64,000 nucleotides of DNA from contig CAZHQK010000014.1 in NCBI GenBank assembly GCA_964534795.1, forward strand, positions 13,444-77,443. Direction: 5' to 3'. This document shows, in pieces, positions 8,007 through 18,707 of this stretch; position 1 is the first letter of the stretch, and the number at the start of each line of letters is the position of its first letter. Source of the DNA: an uncultured Acidobacteriota bacterium (GTDB lineage: Bacteria > Acidobacteriota > UBA6911). Both the position numbers and the translations under genes were made by a program. Under the pieces are notes generated by a model that had not been told where the DNA came from, did not search any database, and saw nothing but the letters and a program-made list of their open reading frames with translations.

Positions 8007-8852
8007 TCATGCGCGCGGGCCGAACTGGGGAGCGCGCAGGCGCTCGGCGTGGTCGCGCACCATGGTGGTGAGCAGCGGGTCGGCGAGCCGCAGGAAGCGT
8101 GCTGCCGGCTGCTGCTCCAGCTTCATGGCCGGGTCCTTCTCGAAGCCGATCTCCAGGAAGATCATCGACTGGTTGGCCAGCTCGACGACGGCCGCAAGCT
8201 TGCAATACTTGCCCGCCGCCGCGTGGTCGTGGTGGTGCAGGATCGCCTCGGCAAGATGATTGGGGAATCTCCAGCGCTCCGCCACCAGGGCGCCCACCTC
8301 GGCGTGGGTGAACCCGAAGCGCTCGCTCTCGGCCCGGCGGAAGGTTCTTTCGCCGCGGTGGACCAGGTTGAGGATTTCCAGGTAGCGGGGCTCGTGGTTT
8401 TTCAGGAAGACCACCTTGCCGATGTCGTGCAGCAGGCCGGCGGTGAAGGCCTCCTCGGGGTTGTGGTAGTCGATGCAGCGCGCGATGGCCCTGGCCAGCA
8501 CGGCCGCCCCCCAGGAATGCTGCCAGAACAGCTGGGAGGCCAGTCCCGCCGGGCGGCCGCCGTTGCCCTGGTGCAGCTGCTCGACCGAGGCCGCGATCAG
8601 GATGGAGCGCAGCGTCTGCAGGCCCAGAATGCTCACGGCGTGCGTCAGCGTGGACACTTCGCGCTGGAAGGAAAACATCGCGGAATTGACGATTTTCAGT
8701 ATGCGTGCGGTCAGCGCCTGATCCTGGGCGATCACCGCCTGGAGTTCGCGCGCCGACGTGTCGGGCTTTTCCGAAAGGCGCAGCGCCTTCATGGCGATCA
8801 TCGGGAATGGCGGCAGGTCTCCCGCCCGGGCGGCGATTTCTTCGGCGTTCAT
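8007..8852 (-). CDS. HDOD domain signalling protein
   Basis: 281 aa. HD-related output domain signature (ILKIVNSAMF, GLLHDIGKVVF, HHHDH). The 418-aa extended ORF (to 8859/7603) is a frame artefact. Confidence 0.75.
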   Translation of the reverse strand: MNAEEIAARAGDLPPFPMIAMKALRLSEKPDTSARELQAVIAQDQALTARILKIVNSAMFSFQREVSTLTHAVSILGLQTLRSILIAASVEQLHQGNGGRPAGLASQLFWQHSWGAAVLARAIARCIDYHNPEEAFTAGLLHDIGKVVFLKNHEPRYLEILNLVHRGERTFRRAESERFGFTHAEVGALVAERWRFPNHLAEAILHHHDHAAAGKYCKLAAVVELANQSMIFLEIGFEKDPAMKLEQQPAARFLRLADPLLTTMVRDHAERLRAPQFGPRA

Positions 8853-8949
8853 CGCGCAACCTCCGGTTTCAGGAAATCCTATCGTTGCGCGGAGGCGCGG
8901 ACTGTAGGACTTTGCCTGGTGCGCGCGTCTTTGCCGGGCGCAGCACGCG

Positions 8950-9490
8950 GCTGTCGCGCGAACCGTACCTGCCGCAGGGAAAGGTGGCGATCTACACCAC
9001 GACCTTCGAGAAGCACGGCTACAATCCGCTGCCGGTCTGGGTGGAGCCCCCCGAGAGCCTGACCGGCACTCCCGAGCTGAAAGAGAAGTATCCCCTGATC
9101 TTTTCGGATCACCACACCTCGAAGGTGTACAACGCCGGGTGGCTGCGGCATGTGCCGAACCTCAGGGAGGTCATGCCCCATCCCACGGTCCAGATTCATC
9201 CGGAGGCCGCCGCGGCGCGCGGCATCCGCGACGGCGACTGGGTCGTCGTGGAATCGCCCCATGCGCGCACGAAGTTTCAGGCCGAGATCACTCCCGGTAT
9301 CCGGCCGGACACCGTGATGGCGCTGCACGGCTGGCGGCAGGGGTGCGAGGAACTCGGCCTCCCCGGCTGTCCGCTTTCGGACGGCGGCGCCAACACCAAC
9401 GCGATGTACAGCGTCGATTTCGACAAAGCCTTCGATCCAGTGGTGACGGCGATGTCGAGTCAGACCCTGGTCCAGGTGCGCAAGGCATAG
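8950..9490 (+). pseudogene. Molybdopterin (DMSO reductase-family) oxidoreductase catalytic subunit, C-terminal about 180-aa remnant only
   Basis: Translation REPYLPQGKVAIYTTTFEKHGYNPLPVWVEPPES...VVVESPHARTKFQAEITPGIRPD is the C-terminal molybdopterin-dinucleotide-binding domain. The roughly 600 N-terminal residues are absent; sequence upstream of 8950 runs into the HDOD gene. Confidence 0.6.
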
Positions 9491-9506
9491 GCGGAGGAAA
9501 GCCGAA

Positions 9507-10079
9507 ATGGCTCAACTGGGCTTTTTCATCGGAACCGAACGATGCGTGCAGTGCCGTGCATGCGAAGTCGCCTGCAAGTCCTGGAACGGGATCGAACCCG
9601 GGGTGCGCTGGAGGCGCGTGCTCCAGGATTGGGGAGGCGCCTATCCGGAAGTCGCCGATCGCACGATCTCGGTTTCCTGCATGCACTGCGAAAAGCCGGC
9701 CTGCGCCGCGGCCTGCCCCGCCGGCGCCATCTCGAAGAGGGCCGAGGTCGGAGTCGTGACCGTCGATCGCAACAAGTGCATCGGCTGCCGTTCATGCTCG
9801 AAAGCGTGTCCTTACGGCGTCCCCCGATACGGAAAGAGCGGCAGGATGCAGAAGTGCGACCTGTGCCTGGAACGGCGCGCGCAGGGGAAGGAGCCGGCGT
9901 GCACGGCAACCTGCCCCGGGGAAGCGTCGAAGGCCGGGACCATCGAAGAGCTGGGGCGCATGGCGGCGCAGAGATCCGGCGCGAGACTCGCCGGCGACAC
10001 CCTCCCGGCTCTTTTCATTTCCGGCAAACCCGCCGGCGAATCCTGGCTGCCGGTGATCCAATCCCTGCCAAGCCGTTGA
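9507..10079 (+). CDS. 4Fe-4S ferredoxin-type iron-sulfur subunit (DmsB/NarH-like electron-transfer subunit)
   Basis: 190 aa. Four Cys clusters (CVQCRACEVAC, CMHCEKPACAAACP, CIGCRSCSKACP, CDLCLERR...CTATCP). Immediately downstream of the catalytic-subunit remnant. Confidence 0.8.
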   Translation: MAQLGFFIGTERCVQCRACEVACKSWNGIEPGVRWRRVLQDWGGAYPEVADRTISVSCMHCEKPACAAACPAGAISKRAEVGVVTVDRNKCIGCRSCSKACPYGVPRYGKSGRMQKCDLCLERRAQGKEPACTATCPGEASKAGTIEELGRMAAQRSGARLAGDTLPALFISGKPAGESWLPVIQSLPSR

Positions 10080-10197
10080 GGATTCGGGGAAAGGCATCGA
10101 GCCGGGGACCGATTGCCCGGCCTGCGGCGATTTTCGGTTGGCGCCCCGACGATCGGCTCGATGACTCCGGAGGCATTCGAATCCCCGAGCGTTGCCT

Positions 10198-10848
10198 CTA
10201 GAACAAGCGCTTGATGATTGAAAAAGCGGCGTCGATGTCTCTTTCGTCCAGGACCACGGTGAACTCATTGAGCGTGGATACGACCTCGATGACGTTCAGA
10301 CCTTCCCAAGCCAGGGCCTTGAGGATGTGGCTGTATACTCCCGGGACGGAAACGGTCCCGGCCGGCAGCATGACGGTGACCGAGGCCAGCTGGCCGATTT
10401 GACAAACATGTCTTTCGCCGCGGAAGGCGGCCAGGACCGGCTCCTCGATCTCGCGGCTGGCGATGATCGTCGTCTCATTGATACCCCGGGTGACCGTGAG
10501 AAAGAGGGAAGGTCGCGCGCTCAGACGTTCCAGCAGCCGACTCTGCTTGAGCACGAGCGTCGCAGAGTTGGCGTAGGTGACTTCGAACAGGCGCAGCCGG
10601 ACGATGAGGTCGGGCGCCCTGCGAAAAACGCCTGCGCGTTTTTTCGACCTGGCGGTGAGTGTCCGGGACAGGCGGCCGAGCGCGACGATCAGGGCCCCCA
10701 ATTGAACGCTTTTCATGGCTTCGCGCTCGACGTCTCTTCGGATGCGCCGCGCCAGCGCCGAATGGTTCACGATGCCCAGGCTCAGGGCGTCTTCCAGGTA
10801 CGGCGAACGGCGCACCAGCGCCGTGACGATCTCGGGAATCGTGCGCAT
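10198..10848 (-). CDS. Hypothetical protein with C-terminal ACT-like fold; possible small-molecule-sensing regulator, divergent from the lysW operon
   Basis: 216 aa. C-terminal PGVYSHILKALAWEGLNVIEVVSTLNEFTVVLDERDIDAAFSIIKRL resembles an ACT domain. The start shares the AT-rich intergenic region with lysW. Confidence 0.45.
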   Translation of the reverse strand: MRTIPEIVTALVRRSPYLEDALSLGIVNHSALARRIRRDVEREAMKSVQLGALIVALGRLSRTLTARSKKRAGVFRRAPDLIVRLRLFEVTYANSATLVLKQSRLLERLSARPSLFLTVTRGINETTIIASREIEEPVLAAFRGERHVCQIGQLASVTVMLPAGTVSVPGVYSHILKALAWEGLNVIEVVSTLNEFTVVLDERDIDAAFSIIKRLF

Positions 10849-10857
10849 GTTGAAAGT

Positions 10858-10885
10858 TTAACATTTTCTTGCAAATTTGTATAAT
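10858..10885 (+). promoter_or_regulatory. Sigma-70-like promoter candidate in an AT-rich island (TTAACA-16 bp-TATAAT) upstream of lysW
   Basis: -35 TTAACA at 10858-10863 and -10 TATAAT at 10880-10885, inside an about 60-bp AT-rich stretch that is exceptional for this GC-rich sequence. About 95 nt upstream of the lysW ATG. Confidence 0.45.
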
Positions 10886-10980
10886 ATTTTCAAAAATTTG
10901 ATCCGGCCGGCAAGCCCCTGCTAGGATCCTCGCGCCTGGTTGGACACCTTGGTCCTTTTCCCCATGGAGGTGCAGAGGCC

Positions 10981-11181
10981 ATGTCGACAGAACGCCGCCA
11001 ACGGACGCTCAGCGGGACCTGCCCGATTTGCTCGGCTGCAGTCGCGCCGGCGGGGCCCGTCGAAGATACCGAGATTCTCGCCTGTCCCGAATGCCAATCG
11101 CTGCTGGTGGTCGGCGGTCGCGCGGAGGGCGGACTGGTCCTGAGAGAAGCGCCCAGAGTCGAAGAGGACTGGGGCGAATAG
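10981..11181 (+). CDS. lysW: LysW/ArgW amino-group carrier protein (AmCP)
   Basis: 66 aa. Zinc-finger pairs TCPIC ... CPEC. C-terminal EDWGE motif diagnostic of LysW carrier proteins. GGAGG RBS upstream. Confidence 0.85.
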   Translation: MSTERRQRTLSGTCPICSAAVAPAGPVEDTEILACPECQSLLVVGGRAEGGLVLREAPRVEEDWGE

Positions 11182-11210
11182 AAGCAGGCCCGAAGGCAGG
11201 AGGGCCTTCG

Positions 11211-12065
11211 ATGTACACGCTGGCCATATTCCACTCCACCGTGCGCGAGGAAGAAAAGCGCCTTATGGCTGCGGCGGGATCGCGCGCCATTCGTGTCAGG
11301 CTGATCGACATCCGGGAGCAGGTCTTCGACCCCGCGACCTATCAGGTCGATTTCGACGCCGCGCTGCAACGGTCGGTTTCGACGGTGAAGGGGAACTACG
11401 CCATTGCTTTCCTCGAAGCCCGGGGCATACCCGCGATCAATCCGCTCTGCGTAGCCCGGAACTGCGAGGACAAGTTCCAGACCTCTCTGCTTCTTTTCCG
11501 CGCGGGAATTCCCGTCCCACGCTTCGCTCTCGTCTTTTCCCCGCAACAGGCACTCCATGCCGTGGAAGCCCTGGGCGGTTTCCCCGTCGTGCTCAAGCCG
11601 CCGCTGGGTTCCTGGGGGCGCCTCCTGGCCAAGATCAATGACCCGGATGCCCTGGATGCGCTTTTCGAGCATAAGGAGGTGCTGGGAGCGCCCGCGCAAA
11701 AAGCTTTCTATCTTCAGGAATTCGTGCACAAACCGGGGCGCGACATCCGCGCCTTCGTCATCGATGGCGAGACCGTGTGCGCCATTTACCGGGAATCTCC
11801 TCACTGGATCACGAACACCGCTCGTGGAGGCAAGGCCCGCAACTGCCCTGTGAGCGACGAGCTTCGCGACCTGTGCCGCCGCGTTGCCGAAGCCATCGGC
11901 GGTGGGTTGCTGGCCGTGGATCTGTTCGAGACCGCCGCGGGTCTTCAGGTCAATGAAGTCAACCATACCATGGAATTCCGCAACTCCGAAGGTCCGACGG
12001 GAGTCGATATTGCCGCCGCCGTGATCGATTACTGCATCCGCATAATGAAAGGGCAGCGGCCATGA
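11211..12065 (+). CDS. lysX: LysX, RimK-type ATP-grasp ligase (attaches substrate amino group to the LysW C-terminal Glu)
   Basis: 284 aa ATP-grasp fold (VVLKPPLGSWGR, ...AVDLFE...). The stop overlaps the next start (ATGA). Confidence 0.8.
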   Translation: MYTLAIFHSTVREEEKRLMAAAGSRAIRVRLIDIREQVFDPATYQVDFDAALQRSVSTVKGNYAIAFLEARGIPAINPLCVARNCEDKFQTSLLLFRAGIPVPRFALVFSPQQALHAVEALGGFPVVLKPPLGSWGRLLAKINDPDALDALFEHKEVLGAPAQKAFYLQEFVHKPGRDIRAFVIDGETVCAIYRESPHWITNTARGGKARNCPVSDELRDLCRRVAEAIGGGLLAVDLFETAAGLQVNEVNHTMEFRNSEGPTGVDIAAAVIDYCIRIMKGQRP

Positions 12066-13120
12066 ATGACTCCAGGCTGCGCGTCTCACTCATCGGAGGG
12101 TCCGGCTACGCCGGGGGAGAATTGCTCCGTATTCTGCTGTGGCACCCGAAGGTCCGCGTTCAGCAAGTGACCAGCGACCGTTGTGCGGGCCAGCCCGTGA
12201 CTCTGGTGCATCCCAATCTTCGCGGACACACGGCCATCGCGTTCGTCGGCACCGATGAGGTCGATGAATGCGACCTGATTTTTCTCGCCCTCCCGAACGG
12301 AGAATCCATGCGCACCATGGAAAAGTGGATGGCGAAGGCCGACCGTATCATCGATCTGGGTGCCGACTTCCGGCTGCGGAGCGCGGACGCCTGGTCGGCC
12401 TGGTACGGGATTCCGCACGAGGCGCCCCATCTGATCTCCCGGTTCACTTGCGGCATCCCGGAAATATACGCCGATGAAATCCGCAAGTCCCGCTATGTCG
12501 CCGGCCCGGGGTGCGAGGCGATTGTCTCCATCCTCTGCCTTTTTCCCCTTGTAAAGCACGGACTGCTCAAGCCCCATCCCATCGTGATTGACGCCAAAAT
12601 GGGCAGTTCCCAGGCCGGCCGCACCGTCACCGACGCCTCGCACCATCCGGAAAGAGCCGGTGCCGTCCGCTCCTACAAGCCCAGCGGGCACCGCCATGCT
12701 GCGGAAATCGAACAGGTCCTTCAGGACTTCGGCGCCGCGGTCTCAACCCTGATCTCGGCCACGGCCATCGAAATGGTGCGCGGCATCCTCGTGACCATTC
12801 ACGCCTTCTGCGACGACCCGCGCCTTACCGAGCAGCGGATCTGGCAGACGTTCCGCGTCGAGTACACGGGGAAACCGTTCGTGCGGATGGTGAAGCAAAG
12901 CCGGGGGCTTTATCGTTATCCTGAGCCGAAAATCCTCAAGGGCACGAACTACTGCGACATCGGTTTCGAGAAGGAGCGGCGCTCCGACCGGCTGGTCGTC
13001 ATCGGCGCCATCGACAACCTCGTCAAGGGCAGCGCAGGCAACGCAGTCCAATGCATGAATCTCATGTGCGGGTTCCCCGAAACCATGGGACTCGAGTTCC
13101 CAGGCCTTCATCCGGTGTGA
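12062..13120 (+). CDS. lysY: LysY/ArgC-type NAGPR-family semialdehyde dehydrogenase (reduces the LysW-bound acyl-phosphate)
   Basis: 352 aa. N-terminal Rossmann LIGGSGYAGGELLRIL. Catalytic Cys motif AGPGCEAI. Confidence 0.8.
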   Translation: MNDSRLRVSLIGGSGYAGGELLRILLWHPKVRVQQVTSDRCAGQPVTLVHPNLRGHTAIAFVGTDEVDECDLIFLALPNGESMRTMEKWMAKADRIIDLGADFRLRSADAWSAWYGIPHEAPHLISRFTCGIPEIYADEIRKSRYVAGPGCEAIVSILCLFPLVKHGLLKPHPIVIDAKMGSSQAGRTVTDASHHPERAGAVRSYKPSGHRHAAEIEQVLQDFGAAVSTLISATAIEMVRGILVTIHAFCDDPRLTEQRIWQTFRVEYTGKPFVRMVKQSRGLYRYPEPKILKGTNYCDIGFEKERRSDRLVVIGAIDNLVKGSAGNAVQCMNLMCGFPETMGLEFPGLHPV

Positions 13121-13122
13121 AT

Positions 13123-14175
13123 ATGAATATGGAGAGCACGGCTCTGATCCACTTCAAGGGTGTGATCGACACGACGCTGCGCGAAGGTCTCCAGTTCGCG
13201 CGGGCGGCCTTTGCAGCGGCACAGCATCGAAGGATTTTCGACTACCTGCAGCAAATCGGCGTCGATTACATCGAAGTGGGTAACCCCGTCCAAGACAATA
13301 TCGGACAGATCGTTTCCGGTTTGGCCCGAAGCCGGGGCCCCCATGGAGCAAAAATCCTCTGCCACGTGCGCAATCATCCGCGCGACATTGCCAGGGCCAT
13401 CGACTGCGGTGCCGACGGCGTCAACATCCTCTGCACCGTGGATCTCGAGCGGCTGGACCGCATGGGACTGACGCTTGCGGATTACCAAGACAGGGTCTGC
13501 CGGGGCGTCAACCAGGCAAGGGAGCACGGCCTTGAAGTCCGAGTTGGAGTCGAGGACTTCTTCGGCCAGGATTCGGAGACGGCGCTGGATATTTACGCCA
13601 CCGCCGTCGCATGCGGGGCAGAGCGGATCGCCGTGGCCGATACGCTTGGAAAAACCATGCCTTGGGAGGTTATGCGCCGGATCCGGCGCCTCCGGAACCG
13701 CTTCCCCGTGGACATCGAAGTCCATTTCCACAACGATCTGGGACATGCGGTGAGCAACGCCATTGCCGCTCTTCGAGCCGGGGCCAACTGGGTCAGTACT
13801 TCGCTCCTCGGCATCGGCGAGCGCACCGGAATCACGCCGCTCAGCTCGTTTCTTGCCAACCTGCATGTCCTGGATGAGCGGGCTGCGCGCCGCTACCGGT
13901 TGAGCCGGCTGACGGAAGCCGAGAATTACGTCGCCTGCGTTTGCGGGATCGACATGCCGCTCCATCTCATGACCAATCCCGCCAGCGGCTTCGCCCACAA
14001 AGCCGGCATCCACCTCGACGCGCTGATCAAATTCGGACCGCACAAGTACGAATGCCTCCCTCCCGAAGTCATCGGCAACAAGCGCCGCCTGGTGATCTCC
14101 ACGATCGTTTCGGGCAAGACCACGGAGGAGGATGTGGCGGCTTTCGAGGAACGTTTCGGTCGAGGCTGGGCATGA
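13123..14175 (+). CDS. Homocitrate synthase-like HMGL-family enzyme (short HCS type without an IPMS regulatory domain), with atypical R-E-G-L-Q in place of R-E-G-E-Q
   Basis: 350 aa. DTTLREGLQ, HFHNDLGHA, GIGERTGITPLSSFLANLH, FAHKAGIHLDAL and LPPEVIGNKRRL closely parallel Thermus-type homocitrate synthase blocks. Embedded between lysY and lysZ with a 2-nt gap and an ATGA overlap. Confidence 0.75.
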   Translation: MNMESTALIHFKGVIDTTLREGLQFARAAFAAAQHRRIFDYLQQIGVDYIEVGNPVQDNIGQIVSGLARSRGPHGAKILCHVRNHPRDIARAIDCGADGVNILCTVDLERLDRMGLTLADYQDRVCRGVNQAREHGLEVRVGVEDFFGQDSETALDIYATAVACGAERIAVADTLGKTMPWEVMRRIRRLRNRFPVDIEVHFHNDLGHAVSNAIAALRAGANWVSTSLLGIGERTGITPLSSFLANLHVLDERAARRYRLSRLTEAENYVACVCGIDMPLHLMTNPASGFAHKAGIHLDALIKFGPHKYECLPPEVIGNKRRLVISTIVSGKTTEEDVAAFEERFGRGWA

Positions 14176-14972
14176 TCCTGATCAAGGCAGGCGGCGGGCG
14201 GAATCTCAACTGGAACGGTATTGCCGCGGATATCGCCGACCTCCGGCGAAGCGTCCCGGTCATCCTGGTACACGGCGCCAACGCCATACGGAGCGACATT
14301 GCCCTGCGCCTTGGCGTTCCCGTTCGAACGGTGGTTTCGCCCTCGGGTGTGACCAGCGTTTACACCGACCCGGAGGGGCTGGAGGTGTTCCTCATGGCCT
14401 ACGCTGGCGTTGCCAACAAACGCATTGTAGCCTGCCTGCAGCGCTGGGGCGTCAATGCGGTCGGCCTGTGCGGGGTCGATGGCCGGCTCTGGCAGGCGAA
14501 GGCCAAAAAGGATCTGTTGGTGGTGGAGAACGGCAAGACCAAGCTCCTGCGGGACAATCTCACCGGCAGGGTCGAAAACGTCAATGCCGACCTTGTGCGT
14601 CTTCTCCTGGATCACGGCTATGTGCCTGTTCTATGCGCACCAGCCATCAGCGACGAGCATGAAATCGTCAACACCGATAACGACGGAGCCGCCGCCATCG
14701 TAGCGGCGGCCATGGGGGTCAGGTTCATGATCTACCTGTTCGAGGCTCCCGGTTTTCTCGAAGACCCGGAGCGACCCGACAGCCTGGTTCCCAGGATACC
14801 GCGCAGCGCAATCCAAGAGTACCTGCCCTTGGCCCGAGGCCGGATGCGGAGGAAGCTGCTGGGTGCGCAGCGAGCCCTCGAGCACGGGGTGATGGAAATC
14901 AGATTCGGAGACGGACGTGTAGAGCGACCGGTCCTGGATGCGCTTGCCGGCAAAGGAACGGTCATCCAATGA
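14172..14972 (+). CDS. lysZ: LysZ/ArgB-type amino-acid kinase (phosphorylates the LysW-bound substrate)
   Basis: 266 aa amino-acid-kinase fold (ILIKAGGG, VLVHGAN, NTDNDGAAAIVAAAMG). ATGA overlaps on both sides. Confidence 0.8.
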   Translation: MILIKAGGGRNLNWNGIAADIADLRRSVPVILVHGANAIRSDIALRLGVPVRTVVSPSGVTSVYTDPEGLEVFLMAYAGVANKRIVACLQRWGVNAVGLCGVDGRLWQAKAKKDLLVVENGKTKLLRDNLTGRVENVNADLVRLLLDHGYVPVLCAPAISDEHEIVNTDNDGAAAIVAAAMGVRFMIYLFEAPGFLEDPERPDSLVPRIPRSAIQEYLPLARGRMRRKLLGAQRALEHGVMEIRFGDGRVERPVLDALAGKGTVIQ

Positions 14973-16165
14973 CGGACACACTGCTTCTTCAACGGGAGTA
15001 CACGGTGCCGACCTACACCGACCGCAAGCTGGCCTTGGTCCTGGGTGACGGCGTCTATTTACAGGATGAGTCCGGTTCTCGTTACTTGGACTTCATGTCG
15101 AACTACGGCATCGCAATCTTTGGGTACCGCCACCCCGACATCACACGGCGACTGACGGAGCAACTGGAGCGCCTGCCGAATCTTCACGGAAGTTTTGCCA
15201 ATGATGTGCGGGCGGAAGCCGCCCGGCGGCTTGTCGCTCGCTGCGGCGGCGGCCTCGCCCGGGTCTGTTTTACCAATTCCGGCGCGGAAGCCAACGAGGC
15301 AGCCCTGAAATTTGCGGTACTGGCCACAGGCAAGAAGAGATTCATCGCCTGCCGCGGCGGCTATCACGGCAAGACCCTGGGCGCGCTTTCGGCAACCGAC
15401 AGTGCGAAATACCGGCAGACGTTGGAACCCCTGATCTGGGACTTTCGATTCATACCATATGGCGAGCCGGAAGCCTTGGAACGTGCGATCGACAACGACA
15501 CGGCGGCCTTCATCGTCGAGCCCATTCAGGGTGAAAGCGGGGTCCGGATCCCTGCGGAGGGATATCTCGGCCATGCGGCCCGGATCTGCCGTTCTCGAGG
15601 TGCTCTGATGATCGTCGATGAAATCCAGACCGGGACCGGCCGGACAGGCCGCTTTCTGGCCTCCCACGCCGAAGGTCTGACATACGACATCGTCACTCTG
15701 GGAAAAGGTCTCGCGGGAGGAATTCCAGTGGGCGCCACGCTCGTTTCGGCCGCAGTCGCCAGGGGGGTTGCAAGAGGAGCGCACACCTCGACGTTTGGAG
15801 GCAATCCCCTTGCAGCCGCCGGTATCCTGGCGGTCTTGGAACTCATGGACCAGGAGCGCCTTGGCCATATTTCGGCGATAGGAAAGAGGTTCCTTGAAGG
15901 TCTCAGGGGGCTTCCCGGCCCGAACATCGTCGAAGCCCGGGGGAGAGGACTCATGATCGGCCTGGAACTCAGGCGGTCACGCGATGAGGTTCTCGAGCGT
16001 CTTCAGAGGGAAGGCGTTCTGGCGGCGCCGGCCGGAGAGAACGTCGTGCGCTTCCTTCCTCCTTATATCGTCGAAATGACTCACGTCGACATCGTTCTGG
16101 GGAGGCTCGAACGTATTCTGGCTTCATTGGCTGTGGAGAGCGATCGACAATGTGCCGCTTTCTGA
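14969..16165 (+). CDS. lysJ: LysJ/ArgD-type class III PLP aminotransferase
   Basis: 398 aa. DEIQTGTGRTG and TLGKGLAGG (PLP lysine) motifs. Confidence 0.8.
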   Translation: MTDTLLLQREYTVPTYTDRKLALVLGDGVYLQDESGSRYLDFMSNYGIAIFGYRHPDITRRLTEQLERLPNLHGSFANDVRAEAARRLVARCGGGLARVCFTNSGAEANEAALKFAVLATGKKRFIACRGGYHGKTLGALSATDSAKYRQTLEPLIWDFRFIPYGEPEALERAIDNDTAAFIVEPIQGESGVRIPAEGYLGHAARICRSRGALMIVDEIQTGTGRTGRFLASHAEGLTYDIVTLGKGLAGGIPVGATLVSAAVARGVARGAHTSTFGGNPLAAAGILAVLELMDQERLGHISAIGKRFLEGLRGLPGPNIVEARGRGLMIGLELRRSRDEVLERLQREGVLAAPAGENVVRFLPPYIVEMTHVDIVLGRLERILASLAVESDRQCAAF

Positions 16166-16815
16166 TGCTCCAGGCCGCTTCTCCCTTCCATGTCGCGGGC
16201 GTCCTGACGAGCTTTGCGGACATGGTTGCGCGCAGCCGCGCTCCGGACGGCCATTGGCAGGGGGACGGCTGGGGCGTCGGCTGGCTGGATAGCTCCCGGG
16301 AATGGCGCGTCCGCAAATCGCTGAGCCCTATCTGGGAAGATGCCCCCGTGTTTTCCGAAATTCCCGCGACTACAGCTCTGGTCGCCCACGCGCGCAGCGC
16401 CTCGTTCCCGGAGCAGAAGAATATTCTGGCCTACAACCAGCCATTCGCCGCAGGCCCCTATGCGTTCGTCTTCAACGGGTTCCTCCGGGGAGTATCGCTC
16501 CCCTTTCCCGTGGAGGGGAAAATCGGATCACAGAAGATCTGGTTCCTGCTGGCCGACCTCTTGAGCGTGAGGTCTCCTGAAGAAAGCCTCCGTGAGCTCG
16601 TCCATCTCCTGGAATCTCATTCCCGGCGGGTCCTGGCTCTGAACATCGGCCTTTTCGTTGCAAACCGCATCTTCGCGCTCTGCAGTCATGACGGCACCGA
16701 TGATTACTACCGGCTTCGGGTTCACAGGTCAGCTACGCTCACCATGGTCAGCTCGGAGGAGTTCGGGGACTTTGCCTTCGATCCTGCCCCTATGAATGCC
16801 GTCCTTGCATTCTGA
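16150..16815 (+). CDS. EgtC-like class II (Ntn, Cys2) glutamine-amidotransferase-fold amidohydrolase; candidate LysW-gamma-glutamyl release enzyme
   Basis: 221 aa beginning MCRFL (nucleophilic Cys2). GDGWGVGW, FVFNGFL and ALNIGLFVANRIF parallel EgtC blocks. The last gene of the lysW operon, overlapping lysJ by 16 nt. No M20 LysK/ArgE homologue is present. Confidence 0.7.
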   Translation: MCRFLMLQAASPFHVAGVLTSFADMVARSRAPDGHWQGDGWGVGWLDSSREWRVRKSLSPIWEDAPVFSEIPATTALVAHARSASFPEQKNILAYNQPFAAGPYAFVFNGFLRGVSLPFPVEGKIGSQKIWFLLADLLSVRSPEESLRELVHLLESHSRRVLALNIGLFVANRIFALCSHDGTDDYYRLRVHRSATLTMVSSEEFGDFAFDPAPMNAVLAF

Positions 16816-16926
16816 TCCCAAGGCGGCTCCTTCAAGAACATTCTGCAGCGAAGTGCGATCGGGAGAAGATGTCATGGCCTGCAGATCTCGATGCCGGCGA
16901 CATGCCCTGCATCAGAGCGGTTCGCG

Positions 16927-17172
16927 TCATCCGCCGGCGCCTGCCGCGCTTTGCGGCTGTTCCCCGTGAGCGGCAGGCGAGAAACATCCGGGCAGCTCGA
17001 CCGGCTCTTCGAGCCGGAGACCGGCATAGCCGAGATACTTGTCGTAATCGATCGCTTTCGTAGTCGAAGCGTACTCGAACAGCTCCTGGAGTGAAACGCC
17101 GGCGACGTTCTCGCAGACCGCCCGGAATTCTTCGTCCGTCCAGCCGCGCCCGGCTTTCGGCCGGCGGCTCAC
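16927..17172 (-). CDS. Small ORF (81 aa, GTG start overlapping the arabinofuranosidase stop); possibly a gene fragment
   Basis: Reasonable codon usage but no recognisable domain. The GTG start overlaps the upstream TGA. Confidence 0.25.
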
Positions 17173-18707
17173 TGCAACTGCAGCTGCAGGATCGTGAGCG
17201 AGTGGGCCGGGAAGACGTAGGTGAAGGCGTTGTTCTCGACGGCCAGTGATGCCGTCCTGGTCACAGGACGGACCTTGTTGTCGGCGCCGAAGGTGTGCGT
17301 CGCCTTCAGGTCCGGGTGGTTCATTTCCCAGATGCGCGCCTCGCTGCGCAGCCGGCCCTCCTGGTTCTCGATGCGCGCGGCGATATCCGTCCCCCGGCTG
17401 CGGTTCAGGACATTCAGATAGACCGCGCGCTGCGCGGCATTGTATGTCGCCGAAACATCGAGATATTTGAGGGGCGGGCGGTTACCGACGGTGTACGTGG
17501 GCGCCGCGACCCAGACGTCGAGCGCCGTGTTGCCGCGCTGCCTGCCGTATTCCTCGATCGGGAAGAAGATCGGCTGCAGGAACAGCCCCTGGCGGTTGGT
17601 CATGATGGGGGCGATCACGTTGACCATCTGGGCGAGATTGGCCATCTTGACGATGTCGGCATTGCGGAAGAAGCAATTGAAAAACATCCCCATGGCCAGG
17701 GCGTCTTCGAAGTTGTAGATTTCCTCGAGCTTCTCCTTGTTTCCCGTGCGGTACCAGACGTTCCACTCGTCGTAGGCGATGTAGACCGGGCGCCCCCCGG
17801 GCTGGCGCGTCTGGCGGATGAGGCCGCGGGTCACCTCGATGTAATGCTCGATCGTCTGCGACCAGGCGAGGAACCGTTCCAGGTCGTTGTCGCGGTTGTT
17901 GATATAGGTGTGGATGGCGATGTAGTCGACGGTGTTGCGCAGCTCGGCGAGCACGGTGCGGTTCCACGCGATCCAGTCGGCGCCGTAGTTGCTCGAGCCG
18001 CTGGCGACCAGCTTGATGGTGCGGTCGACGGCGCGCATGGCCTTGGCGGCCTCGAGGGCGAATCTGGCGTACTCCTCGGCGCTCTTGTGGCCGAGCTGCC
18101 ACGGGCCGTCGATCTCGTTGCCCAGGGCCCAGTACTTGACGCCGTAGGGGGTCTCGCGGCCGTTCTTGCGCCGCTGGTCGGCCCAGCAGGTACGGCGCGA
18201 CTCGTTGCAGTACTCGACCCAGTGGCGCGCGTCGTCGATGGTGCCCAGGCCGAGGTTGATGCAGATGTAGGGCTCGGCGCCAATGAGCTCGCAGTAGCGG
18301 AGGAACTCGTCCGTGCCGAAGCGGTTGCTCTCGAGGTCGTCCCATGCCAGCTCGGGGCGCACCGGGCGCAGCTCCTTGGGGCCCATGCCGTCCTTCCAGT
18401 TGTAGCCCGAGGCGAAGTTGCCGCCGGGCCAGCGCAGGATGGAGACGCCCAGGCGGCGCACGGCGTCGATCACGTCCTTGCGATATCCGTTCGCGTCCGA
18501 AAGCGGGCTGCCCTCTTCGTAGATGCCGCCGTAGATCATGCGGCCCAGGTGTTCGGCGAAGTTGCCGAAGAGATGCGGGTGCACCTCGCCGATGGTGCGG
18601 TCGATGTCGATCTTGATGCGCGCCTGCGGGGCCGCAGTCTGCGCGGGCGCCGGCGCGGCACACACGGCCGTGGCGCAGAAGAACAGAACTATCGCACGTA
18701 TTCTCAT
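17169..18707 (-). CDS. Alpha-L-arabinofuranosidase, GH51 family, secreted
   Basis: 512 aa. Signal peptide [25 protein letters not shown]51 blocks ([35 protein letters not shown]). The 550-aa track ORF extends upstream of the true start. Confidence 0.85.

Follow-up and report, generated by a model that had tools for sequence, protein, structure and literature searches.

A probable lysine operon of Candidatus Aminicenantes in which an EgtC-like amidase appears to take the place of LysK

The LysW pathway is a textbook case for the evolution of lysine and arginine synthesis, and to our knowledge a single enzyme family, the M20 hydrolase LysK, has so far been known for its release step. What, then, does a LysW operon without LysK make, and how does its product leave the carrier? 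This question is raised by a stretch of 64,000 nucleotides (nt) from an uncultured Acidobacteriota bacterium (assembly GCA_964534795.1, contig CAZHQK010000014.1, positions 13,444 to 77,443; hereafter the window), which contains such an operon. The original prediction, made from the sequence, had left two readings standing: a compact alpha-aminoadipate operon for lysine with an EgtC-like gene in the place of LysK, or a pathway to some other product in which an HMGL enzyme encoded within the operon forms a different C-C bond. Comparative genomics supports the first of these readings and argues against the second. Specifically, we consider it probable that the locus is a LysW operon for lysine synthesis by the alpha-aminoadipate route in Candidatus Aminicenantes (Acidobacteriota), with LysK replaced by an EgtC-fold amidase. 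The operon would thus be of a known kind, with an ordinary homocitrate synthase (HCS), and its interest would lie in its non-homologous last enzyme and in the Gln-ended carriers of its relatives. The source was placed in Aminicenantes on the strength of identical and near-identical proteins and of named metagenome-assembled genomes.

The operon consists of seven plus-strand genes, lysW, lysX, lysY, an HMGL gene, lysZ, lysJ and the amidase gene (Table 1), all of which were found where they had been predicted. They have strong family matches, and their arrangement is not due to chance: over 50 genomes from several phyla show the same order. LysX, LysY and LysZ pass the cut-offs of TIGR02144 (302.8 bits against 275.6), the argC model TIGR01850 (360.8 bits against 233.6) and the [LysW]-aminoadipate kinase model NF010659 (289.1 bits against 223), respectively, with the bifunctional Lys/Glu kinase models scoring LysZ under their cut-offs. 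LysJ matches Aminotran_3 (PF00202) at 4e-97 and falls under the cut-offs of LysJ_Th_th (337.9 bits against 700) and of the argD-type models. LysW matches PF21344 and NF041070, both under cut-off, as is usual at such a short length; the EDWGE terminus and two zinc-finger Cys pairs ascribed to it can be read directly in the sequence. Seven genes make six junctions, and these are, as read from the sequence, a 29-nt gap (lysW/lysX), an ATGA overlap (lysX/lysY), a 2-nt gap (lysY/HMGL), two further ATGA overlaps (HMGL/lysZ and lysZ/lysJ) and a 16-nt overlap (lysJ/amidase). Both gaps are as first described, whereas five overlaps had been counted and only four are present. An eighth conserved member of the module had been overlooked, namely an ACT-domain gene on the minus strand (10198-10848), which we return to below.

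The last gene of the operon encodes a member of a family of 727 database clusters in which an M-C-R-F-L start (containing Cys2) and the motifs H-A-R-S-A, N-Q-P and F-N-G are invariant. We take these motifs to represent the class II amidotransferase pattern of N-terminal nucleophile (Ntn) hydrolases, with a Cys as the nucleophile, an Arg that binds the substrate carboxylate and an oxyanion hole formed by Asn-Gly. In Pfam and NCBIfam the protein matches GATase_4 and EgtC alone, and weakly (45.3 bits for TIGR03442 against a cut-off of 218.65). Its AlphaFold (AF2) model has a mean predicted local distance difference test score (pLDDT) of 92.6, and the best folds in the PDB are EgtC chains (4ZFJ, 4ZFK and 4ZFL; TM 0.76-0.79, 22-23% identity), followed by stand-alone or fused glutaminase domains. 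EgtC cleaves a gamma-glutamyl amide, which is the type of bond that joins LysW to its cargo. Wrong start calls may be the reason why the family is poorly annotated: at three related loci (numbered here with the prefix L) the public gene calls, L002:8915-9565, L003:7168-7818 and L004:13042-13692, begin the amidase at an internal Met, giving a protein of 216 amino acids (aa) that has lost Cys2, whereas the family alignment places the true start, M-C-R-F-L, 15 nt upstream of the called Met.

M20 genes were sought by phmmer with a DapE query sequence, which was validated at 586 bits and also detects the LysK model. No M20 gene was found by this search within the window, in agreement with the earlier statement that LysK is missing from the locus. 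Across the window and 88 related loci the search returned one such gene, L057:4466-5608, which lies between the ACT gene and lysW in a locus that retains the amidase, and whose product is of a generic ArgE/DapE type (72 bits, where the LysK model has its cut-off at 363). Judged from gene content, the EgtC-like amidase appears to take the place of the M20 LysK as the release enzyme.

To assess how widely the amidase accompanies LysW, we searched 185,579 species genomes for members of the amidase family and then compared the matches by tblastn with all eight proteins of the module in the window. LysW clusters account for 59 of the 80 genome loci that have an amidase homologue. LysZ is present in all 59, LysJ in 58, LysY in 56, LysX in 54, the divergently transcribed ACT gene in 50, an HMGL gene in 31 and genes of the hacA/hacB/homoisocitrate dehydrogenase (HICDH) type in 8. 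The amidase gene directly follows lysJ in 55 loci (median gap 12 nt) and lies elsewhere in the cluster in 4 more. Hosts of the module include Aminicenantes (among them the complete chromosome OY969762.1, locus L011), other Acidobacteriota, many phyla of the Microgenomates group of the Candidate Phyla Radiation (CPR), and one metagenome-assembled genome (MAG) each from Woesearchaeota, Borrarchaeota and Dehalococcoidia. In at least nine loci the next gene after that of the amidase encodes lysyl-tRNA synthetase (LysRS), which is of class II in eight (passing TIGR00499) and of class I in one. Because these two types of LysRS are not homologous, their occurrence beside the same module points to lysine as the product. 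Several MAGs labelled 'uncultured Gammaproteobacteria' (L015, L017, L022, L025, L027-L029 and others) have CPR-like operons, and their taxon labels are probably wrong. The amidase homologue of Caldilineaceae comes after genes for a GNAT acetyltransferase and a metallohydrolase of the CehA/McbA family.

The HMGL protein is most likely a genuine homocitrate synthase. Among NCBIfam models it scores highest with that of HCS (TIGR02146, 251.6 bits against a cut-off of 413.55), ahead of the models for isopropylmalate synthase (IPMS), NifV and citramalate synthase, and both PF00682 (1.9e-57) and PF22617 (HCS_D2) match over their cut-offs, the TIM barrel and the HCS post-barrel subdomain being present. 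When solved structures are compared with the protein, three lysine-pathway HCSs come top at 202 (Schizosaccharomyces pombe), 189 (Thermus thermophilus) and 156 bits, against 97 bits for the best IPMS-type chain and about 30-36 bits for DmpG and HMG-CoA lyase. When 31 HMGL proteins encoded in LysW clusters are aligned with the HCSs of Thermus and S. pombe (T. thermophilus numbering), all 31 are seen to keep the equivalents of Arg12, Glu/Asp13, His72, Arg133, Glu137, Thr166, His195 and His197. Of these, residues 13, 137, 195 and 197 are metal-binding or catalytic. We take His72, Arg133 and Ser135 to be ligands of the C5 (distal) carboxylate of 2-oxoglutarate, and His72 and Arg133 to set HCS apart from IPMS. 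The motif R-E-G-L-Q, found where HCS has R-E-G-E-Q, had been singled out in the original prediction. Its fourth position is L, F, W, Y, Q or E among the cluster-linked proteins, and since this position varies freely R-E-G-L-Q is not diagnostic. We considered the motif as a mark of chemistry like that of HMG-CoA lyase and ruled this out, as the variation includes homologues that precede hacAB-HICDH genes.

In seven CPR loci the HMGL gene occupies the same operon slot and is followed, before lysZ, by genes for the large (passing TIGR01343) and small (passing TIGR02087) subunits of homoaconitase, and six of the seven also have an isopropylmalate/homoisocitrate dehydrogenase gene (403.5 bits against a cut-off of 409.8). 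Two of these hacA-hacB-HICDH loci, L049 and L055, encode R-E-G-L-Q proteins that are 48% identical to the HMGL protein of the window and that branch beside the Aminicenantes clade in a neighbour-joining tree, as its nearest non-Aminicenantes neighbours after L023. No other finding speaks as strongly against a different chemistry as this linkage does. With motif position 4 variable, the 2-oxoglutarate ligands kept and R-E-G-L-Q relatives preceding hacA-hacB-HICDH in the same operon, the suggestion that the HMGL protein carries out an alternative reaction is not supported. At three other CPR loci (L045:4077-8020, L047:3830-8031 and L072:3555-6303) the slot between lysY and lysZ is without HCS, hacAB or HICDH genes and is occupied instead by genes for an acetolactate-synthase-like thiamine diphosphate enzyme (L045 and L047), a ThrC-like pyridoxal phosphate enzyme and an enzyme resembling serine hydroxymethyltransferase or fluorothreonine transaldolase; these could belong to a different carrier-protein pathway or simply to a mixed amino-acid operon.

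The tail of LysW is conserved across 49 related loci, and in those linked to the amidase it ends in EDWGE in 40 and in EDWGQ in 9. A set of 77 LysW-like representatives drawn from 1.8 billion proteins includes 53 with a terminal EDWGE and 11 with a terminal EDWGQ, and in about 15% of close LysW relatives Gln takes the place of the final Glu. A terminal Gln offers LysX no gamma-carboxyl, and the terminal Glu is catalytically required. We scanned metagenomes for EEDWGQ followed by a stop codon, a selection that is blind to the amidase and that covers Gln-ended carriers only, and 67 of the 120 matches proved to be LysW clusters. An amidase homologue is carried by 21 of the 22 Gln-ended clusters that have both lysY and lysZ, the exception being cut by the end of its contig, and no clear M20 gene was found among the EEDWGQ clusters. 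In most of these 21 the genes follow another order, W-X-Y-amidase-Z-J, and the amidases concerned (type B) share Cys2 and the core motifs with the type found in the window. The proposed function predicts this association of Gln-ended carriers with the amidase, since LysW-gamma-Glu-NH2 should be open to cleavage by any enzyme that acts on LysW-gamma-Glu-NH-R. A Gln-ended LysW would, if this is true, be the first amino-group carrier protein (AmCP) known to us that needs maturation before use.

Using gene context only, we infer that the amidase is a LysW gamma-glutamyl amidase that frees lysine and matures Gln-ended carriers. In the pathway that we propose, the HMGL enzyme would act as homocitrate synthase and commit 2-oxoglutarate and acetyl-CoA, and homoaconitase, homoisocitrate dehydrogenase and aminoadipate aminotransferase would be encoded elsewhere, or promiscuous enzymes of the LeuCD/LeuB type would serve in their stead. 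LysX would then attach 2-aminoadipate to LysW through the gamma-carboxyl of its C-terminal Glu, and the bound aminoadipate would be phosphorylated by LysZ, reduced by LysY and transaminated by LysJ to give LysW-gamma-lysine. Finally, Cys2 of the amidase would attack the gamma-glutamyl amide, freeing lysine and regenerating LysW-Glu by way of a thioester; in relatives with a Gln-ended LysW this reaction would also serve, at the outset, to convert the carrier by deamidation into the active form that ends in Glu. A broader proposal, to which we give even chances, is that the EgtC-like protein is the first member of a family of gamma-glutamyl amidases acting on the C-terminus of LysW. This family would be a non-homologous replacement for LysK that supplies the missing final step of the LysW pathway in Aminicenantes, CPR Microgenomates, some DPANN archaea and Chloroflexi and that also activates Gln-ended pro-LysW. 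An extreme version of this proposal, a transamidase that would use a Cys thioester to move LysW from finished lysine to new aminoadipate without ATP, is at best improbable.

Several points weigh against lysine synthesis with amidase release. The assignments, comprising all substrates, lysine as the product, the role of the amidase in release and maturation and that of the ACT protein as a sensor, are inferred throughout from homology and gene context. EgtC acts on gamma-glutamyl compounds that have a free alpha-amino group, and the Glu of LysW is peptide-linked; a profile comparison of the amidase family with the GlmS glutaminase domain, directed at the alpha-amino-binding residue, an Asp that may be lost in this family, was uninformative (probability 0.2). 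About one quarter of the amidase homologues, in Entotheonella and several Chloroflexi, lie away from LysW genes. The HMGL protein is under every HCS cut-off, and the equivalent of Ser135 is Gly in the Aminicenantes clade only. No gene for homoaconitase, homoisocitrate dehydrogenase or aminoadipate aminotransferase is present within the 64-kb window, the first two having already been reported missing from the locus. Outside the window the genome may encode a LysK or a complete diaminopimelate (DAP) pathway, or may lack these middle steps. Lastly, Thermus LysZ and LysY are promiscuous towards LysW-Glu, which makes a dual role in lysine and ornithine synthesis possible (PMC12998189).

Lysine, or lysine together with ornithine, might also be made by the operon but released by an M20 LysK encoded elsewhere, in which case the amidase would be an accessory enzyme (for maturation or proofreading) or an unrelated glutaminase. 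It is gene context alone that ties the amidase to release, the homologues outside LysW clusters and the locus with both an M20 gene and the amidase are in keeping with a separate function, and the lysK of Thermus, which is unlinked, provides a precedent. The LysW of the window, however, already ends in Glu, and an amidase for maturation only would be needless here, yet it is kept and translationally coupled to lysJ. Furthermore, the amidase is retained in reduced CPR and DPANN genomes and in two gene orders, and the M20 protein of L057 is not LysK-like by its score. We regard release by such a LysK, with the amidase in another role, as unlikely.

An ArgW-type module that makes ornithine or arginine from glutamate, the HMGL gene being a mere neighbour, would account for the 28 of the 59 related clusters that have no HMGL gene, and archaeal and haloarchaeal LysW systems do make ornithine (PMC10433800), with the promiscuity of LysZ and LysY adding to the case. 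Three features of the locus and its relatives make this improbable: the HMGL gene is translationally coupled within the operon by its 2-nt gap and ATGA overlap, the aminoadipate-specific model suits LysZ better than the bifunctional models do, and it is LysRS, and not arginine-pathway genes, that adjoins related clusters.

A non-lysine amino acid formed on the AmCP, with the HMGL enzyme making another C-C bond, for example by aldol addition to a LysW-bound semialdehyde, and with the amidase releasing the modified product, would fit the position of the HMGL gene directly after that of LysY, the maker of the aldehyde, as well as the divergent residues (R-E-G-L-Q for R-E-G-E-Q and Gly for Ser135), the missed HCS and IPMS cut-offs, the lack of hacAB and HICDH in the window and the quite different enzymes in the same slot at L045, L047 and L072, but is rendered very improbable by the retained His72, Arg133 and catalytic residues, the free variation at motif position 4, the hacA-hacB-HICDH genes that follow its nearest non-Aminicenantes homologues, the aminoadipate-kinase score of LysZ, the LysRS genes that adjoin related clusters, the freedom of the module's flanks from tailoring, nonribosomal peptide synthetase (NRPS) or polyketide synthase (PKS) genes, and the presence of the module in tiny-genome CPR bacteria, which points to primary metabolism.

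Comparison with known systems places the operon, read as one for lysine with amidase release, within the LysW pathways while setting its last step apart. As in T. thermophilus, there is a zinc-ribbon carrier ending in EDWGE, homologues of LysX, LysZ, LysY and LysJ (X, Y and Z over cut-offs) and an HCS-type enzyme clustered with the carrier genes. The operon differs from that of T. thermophilus in that no M20 LysK is present in the cluster or the 64 kb, that an EgtC-fold amidase is terminal, that homoaconitase and HICDH genes are missing from the locus, that the module includes a divergent ACT gene and that the HCS belongs to a diverged subfamily under the equivalog cut-off. With the archaeal LysW systems (Sulfolobus, Thermococcus) and haloarchaeal ArgW it shares the carrier logic and clustered genes of the lysWXZYJ type, but those systems use an M20 LysK-type hydrolase, and here LysZ fits the aminoadipate-specific model. 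The Streptomyces AmCP pathways (DADH/vazabitide) likewise combine an AmCP and LysX/Z/Y/J homologues with an extra C-C bond-forming enzyme; here, in contrast, there are no tailoring or assembly genes (transketolase, NRPS/PKS, oxygenases), the extra enzyme is HCS-like, and the module occurs in reduced genomes and beside LysRS. The amidase itself resembles EgtC (4ZFJ/4ZFK/4ZFL) in being a stand-alone Ntn domain that has a Cys nucleophile at its N-terminus and a length of about 220-230 aa and, as proposed here, in cleaving a gamma-glutamyl amide. It differs from EgtC in having lys neighbours and no egt genes and in its proposed substrate, which would be protein-bound, with the alpha-amino group of the Glu in a peptide linkage.

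An HCS gene embedded in a carrier operon, which had been put forward as an unusual trait, is already known from Thermus and archaea, and in Caldithrix abyssi the LysWXZYJ genes and Hcs occur in one eight-gene locus, Cabys_3146-3153, for which LysK is not listed (PMC5317091). The authors of that study suspect non-orthologous gene displacement in lysine synthesis and propose no replacement enzyme (PMC5317091). The C. abyssi locus matches the present eight-gene module in gene number. The LysW pathway of Thermoflexus hugenholtzii has been described as nearly complete, with 'undefined genes' presumed missing (PMC8129789), and a Thermoflexus MAG (L064) carries an unlinked amidase homologue. If our reading is true, a second release enzyme would account for the seemingly incomplete pathways of several lineages, such as the gaps in C. 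abyssi and Thermoflexus; auxotrophy calls for module-bearing CPR bacteria and Aminicenantes would have to be revised; and the class II amidotransferase fold would have gained a new, protein-directed use. We found no literature that links LysW to EgtC, Ntn hydrolases, Aminicenantes or CPR, or that names 'EDWGQ', in a search that reached few subscription journals, and an earlier description is possible.

The ACT-domain protein matches Pfam DUF7523 and ACT_9, and its AF2 model, built from an alignment of database homologues (pLDDT 87.6), shows some 75 helical residues and, after them, two ACT units. The top Foldseek matches of this model are regulatory domains or subunits of aspartokinases (E 6e-9 to 1e-7), several of which were solved with lysine or threonine bound. 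Consistent with these resemblances, the protein is probably an amino-acid sensor, most likely for lysine, that controls the operon or one of its enzymes. It might act by binding DNA, and a role as a regulatory subunit is also conceivable, LysZ being an enzyme of the aspartate kinase family. The AT-rich intergenic region of 132 nt upstream of lysW contains a promoter candidate that matches 11 of 12 consensus positions, and no Rfam riboswitch, including the lysine riboswitch, was found in 9500-17500, nor was any other Rfam element upstream of lysW.

Table 1 Features of the lys module in the window (window coordinates) and sets of related loci and proteins
Feature	Position or members	Strand	Description
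ACT-domain gene	10198..10848	-	216 aa; N-terminal helical DUF7523, then tandem ACT domains; divergent from lysW
Candidate sigma-70-like promoter	10858..10885	+	TTAACA, 16 nt, TATAAT; consensus match alone
lysW	10981..11181	+	66 aa amino-group carrier protein; zinc ribbon CPIC...CPEC; C-terminus EEDWGE
lysX	11211..12065	+	RimK-type ATP-grasp ligase; TIGR02144; LysX pre-ATP-grasp domain
lysY	12062..13120	+	ArgC-family reductase; TIGR01850
HMGL/HCS-like gene	13123..14175	+	350 aa; PF00682 and HCS_D2 (PF22617); motif T-L-R-E-G-L-Q
lysZ	14172..14972	+	[LysW]-aminoadipate kinase; NF010659
lysJ	14969..16165	+	class III aminotransferase; PF00202
EgtC-like Ntn amidohydrolase gene	16150..16815	+	221 aa; class II glutamine-amidotransferase fold; start M-C-R-F-L, Cys2
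Loci with class II LysRS	L046:10359-11795, L018, L021, L028, L055, L079, L080, L085		
Locus with class I LysRS	L212:9285-11645		found through LysW similarity
Gln-ended LysW, related loci	L023, L027, L031, L035, L040, L048, L051, L057, L059		
Gln-ended LysW, others	metagenome loci L090-L208; proteins P0373, P0387, P0392 and others		
Amidase homologues not beside LysW	L005/L033 (Caldilineaceae), L067, L070, L071, L075, L077 (Entotheonella), L064 (Thermoflexus)		

The genes that flank the module in the window, which encode an HDOD protein, a ferredoxin, an arabinofuranosidase and a transporter, are unrelated to it and are not conserved among its relatives, and the eight-gene block can thus be regarded as the unit. 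Protein look-up across the wider window gave unrelated outer-membrane and two-component genes, and neither a LysRS gene nor second copies of the cluster genes were found within the 64 kb. The lys block (10198-16815) has a GC content of 61.6% and a GC content at third codon positions (GC3) of 0.67-0.78, as against 66-67% GC in the flanks and a GC3 of about 0.9 in two neighbouring genes. These lower values are compatible with horizontal acquisition, which they do not prove; around the block, no tRNA genes and no meaningful flanking repeats were found as signs of a mobile element. At its left edge lie two genes (8705-9490 and 9507-10079), of which the first encodes no more of a molybdenum oxidoreductase than its C-terminal molybdopterin-binding domain (about 201 aa) and resembles a truncated gene, while the second encodes a 4Fe-4S protein.

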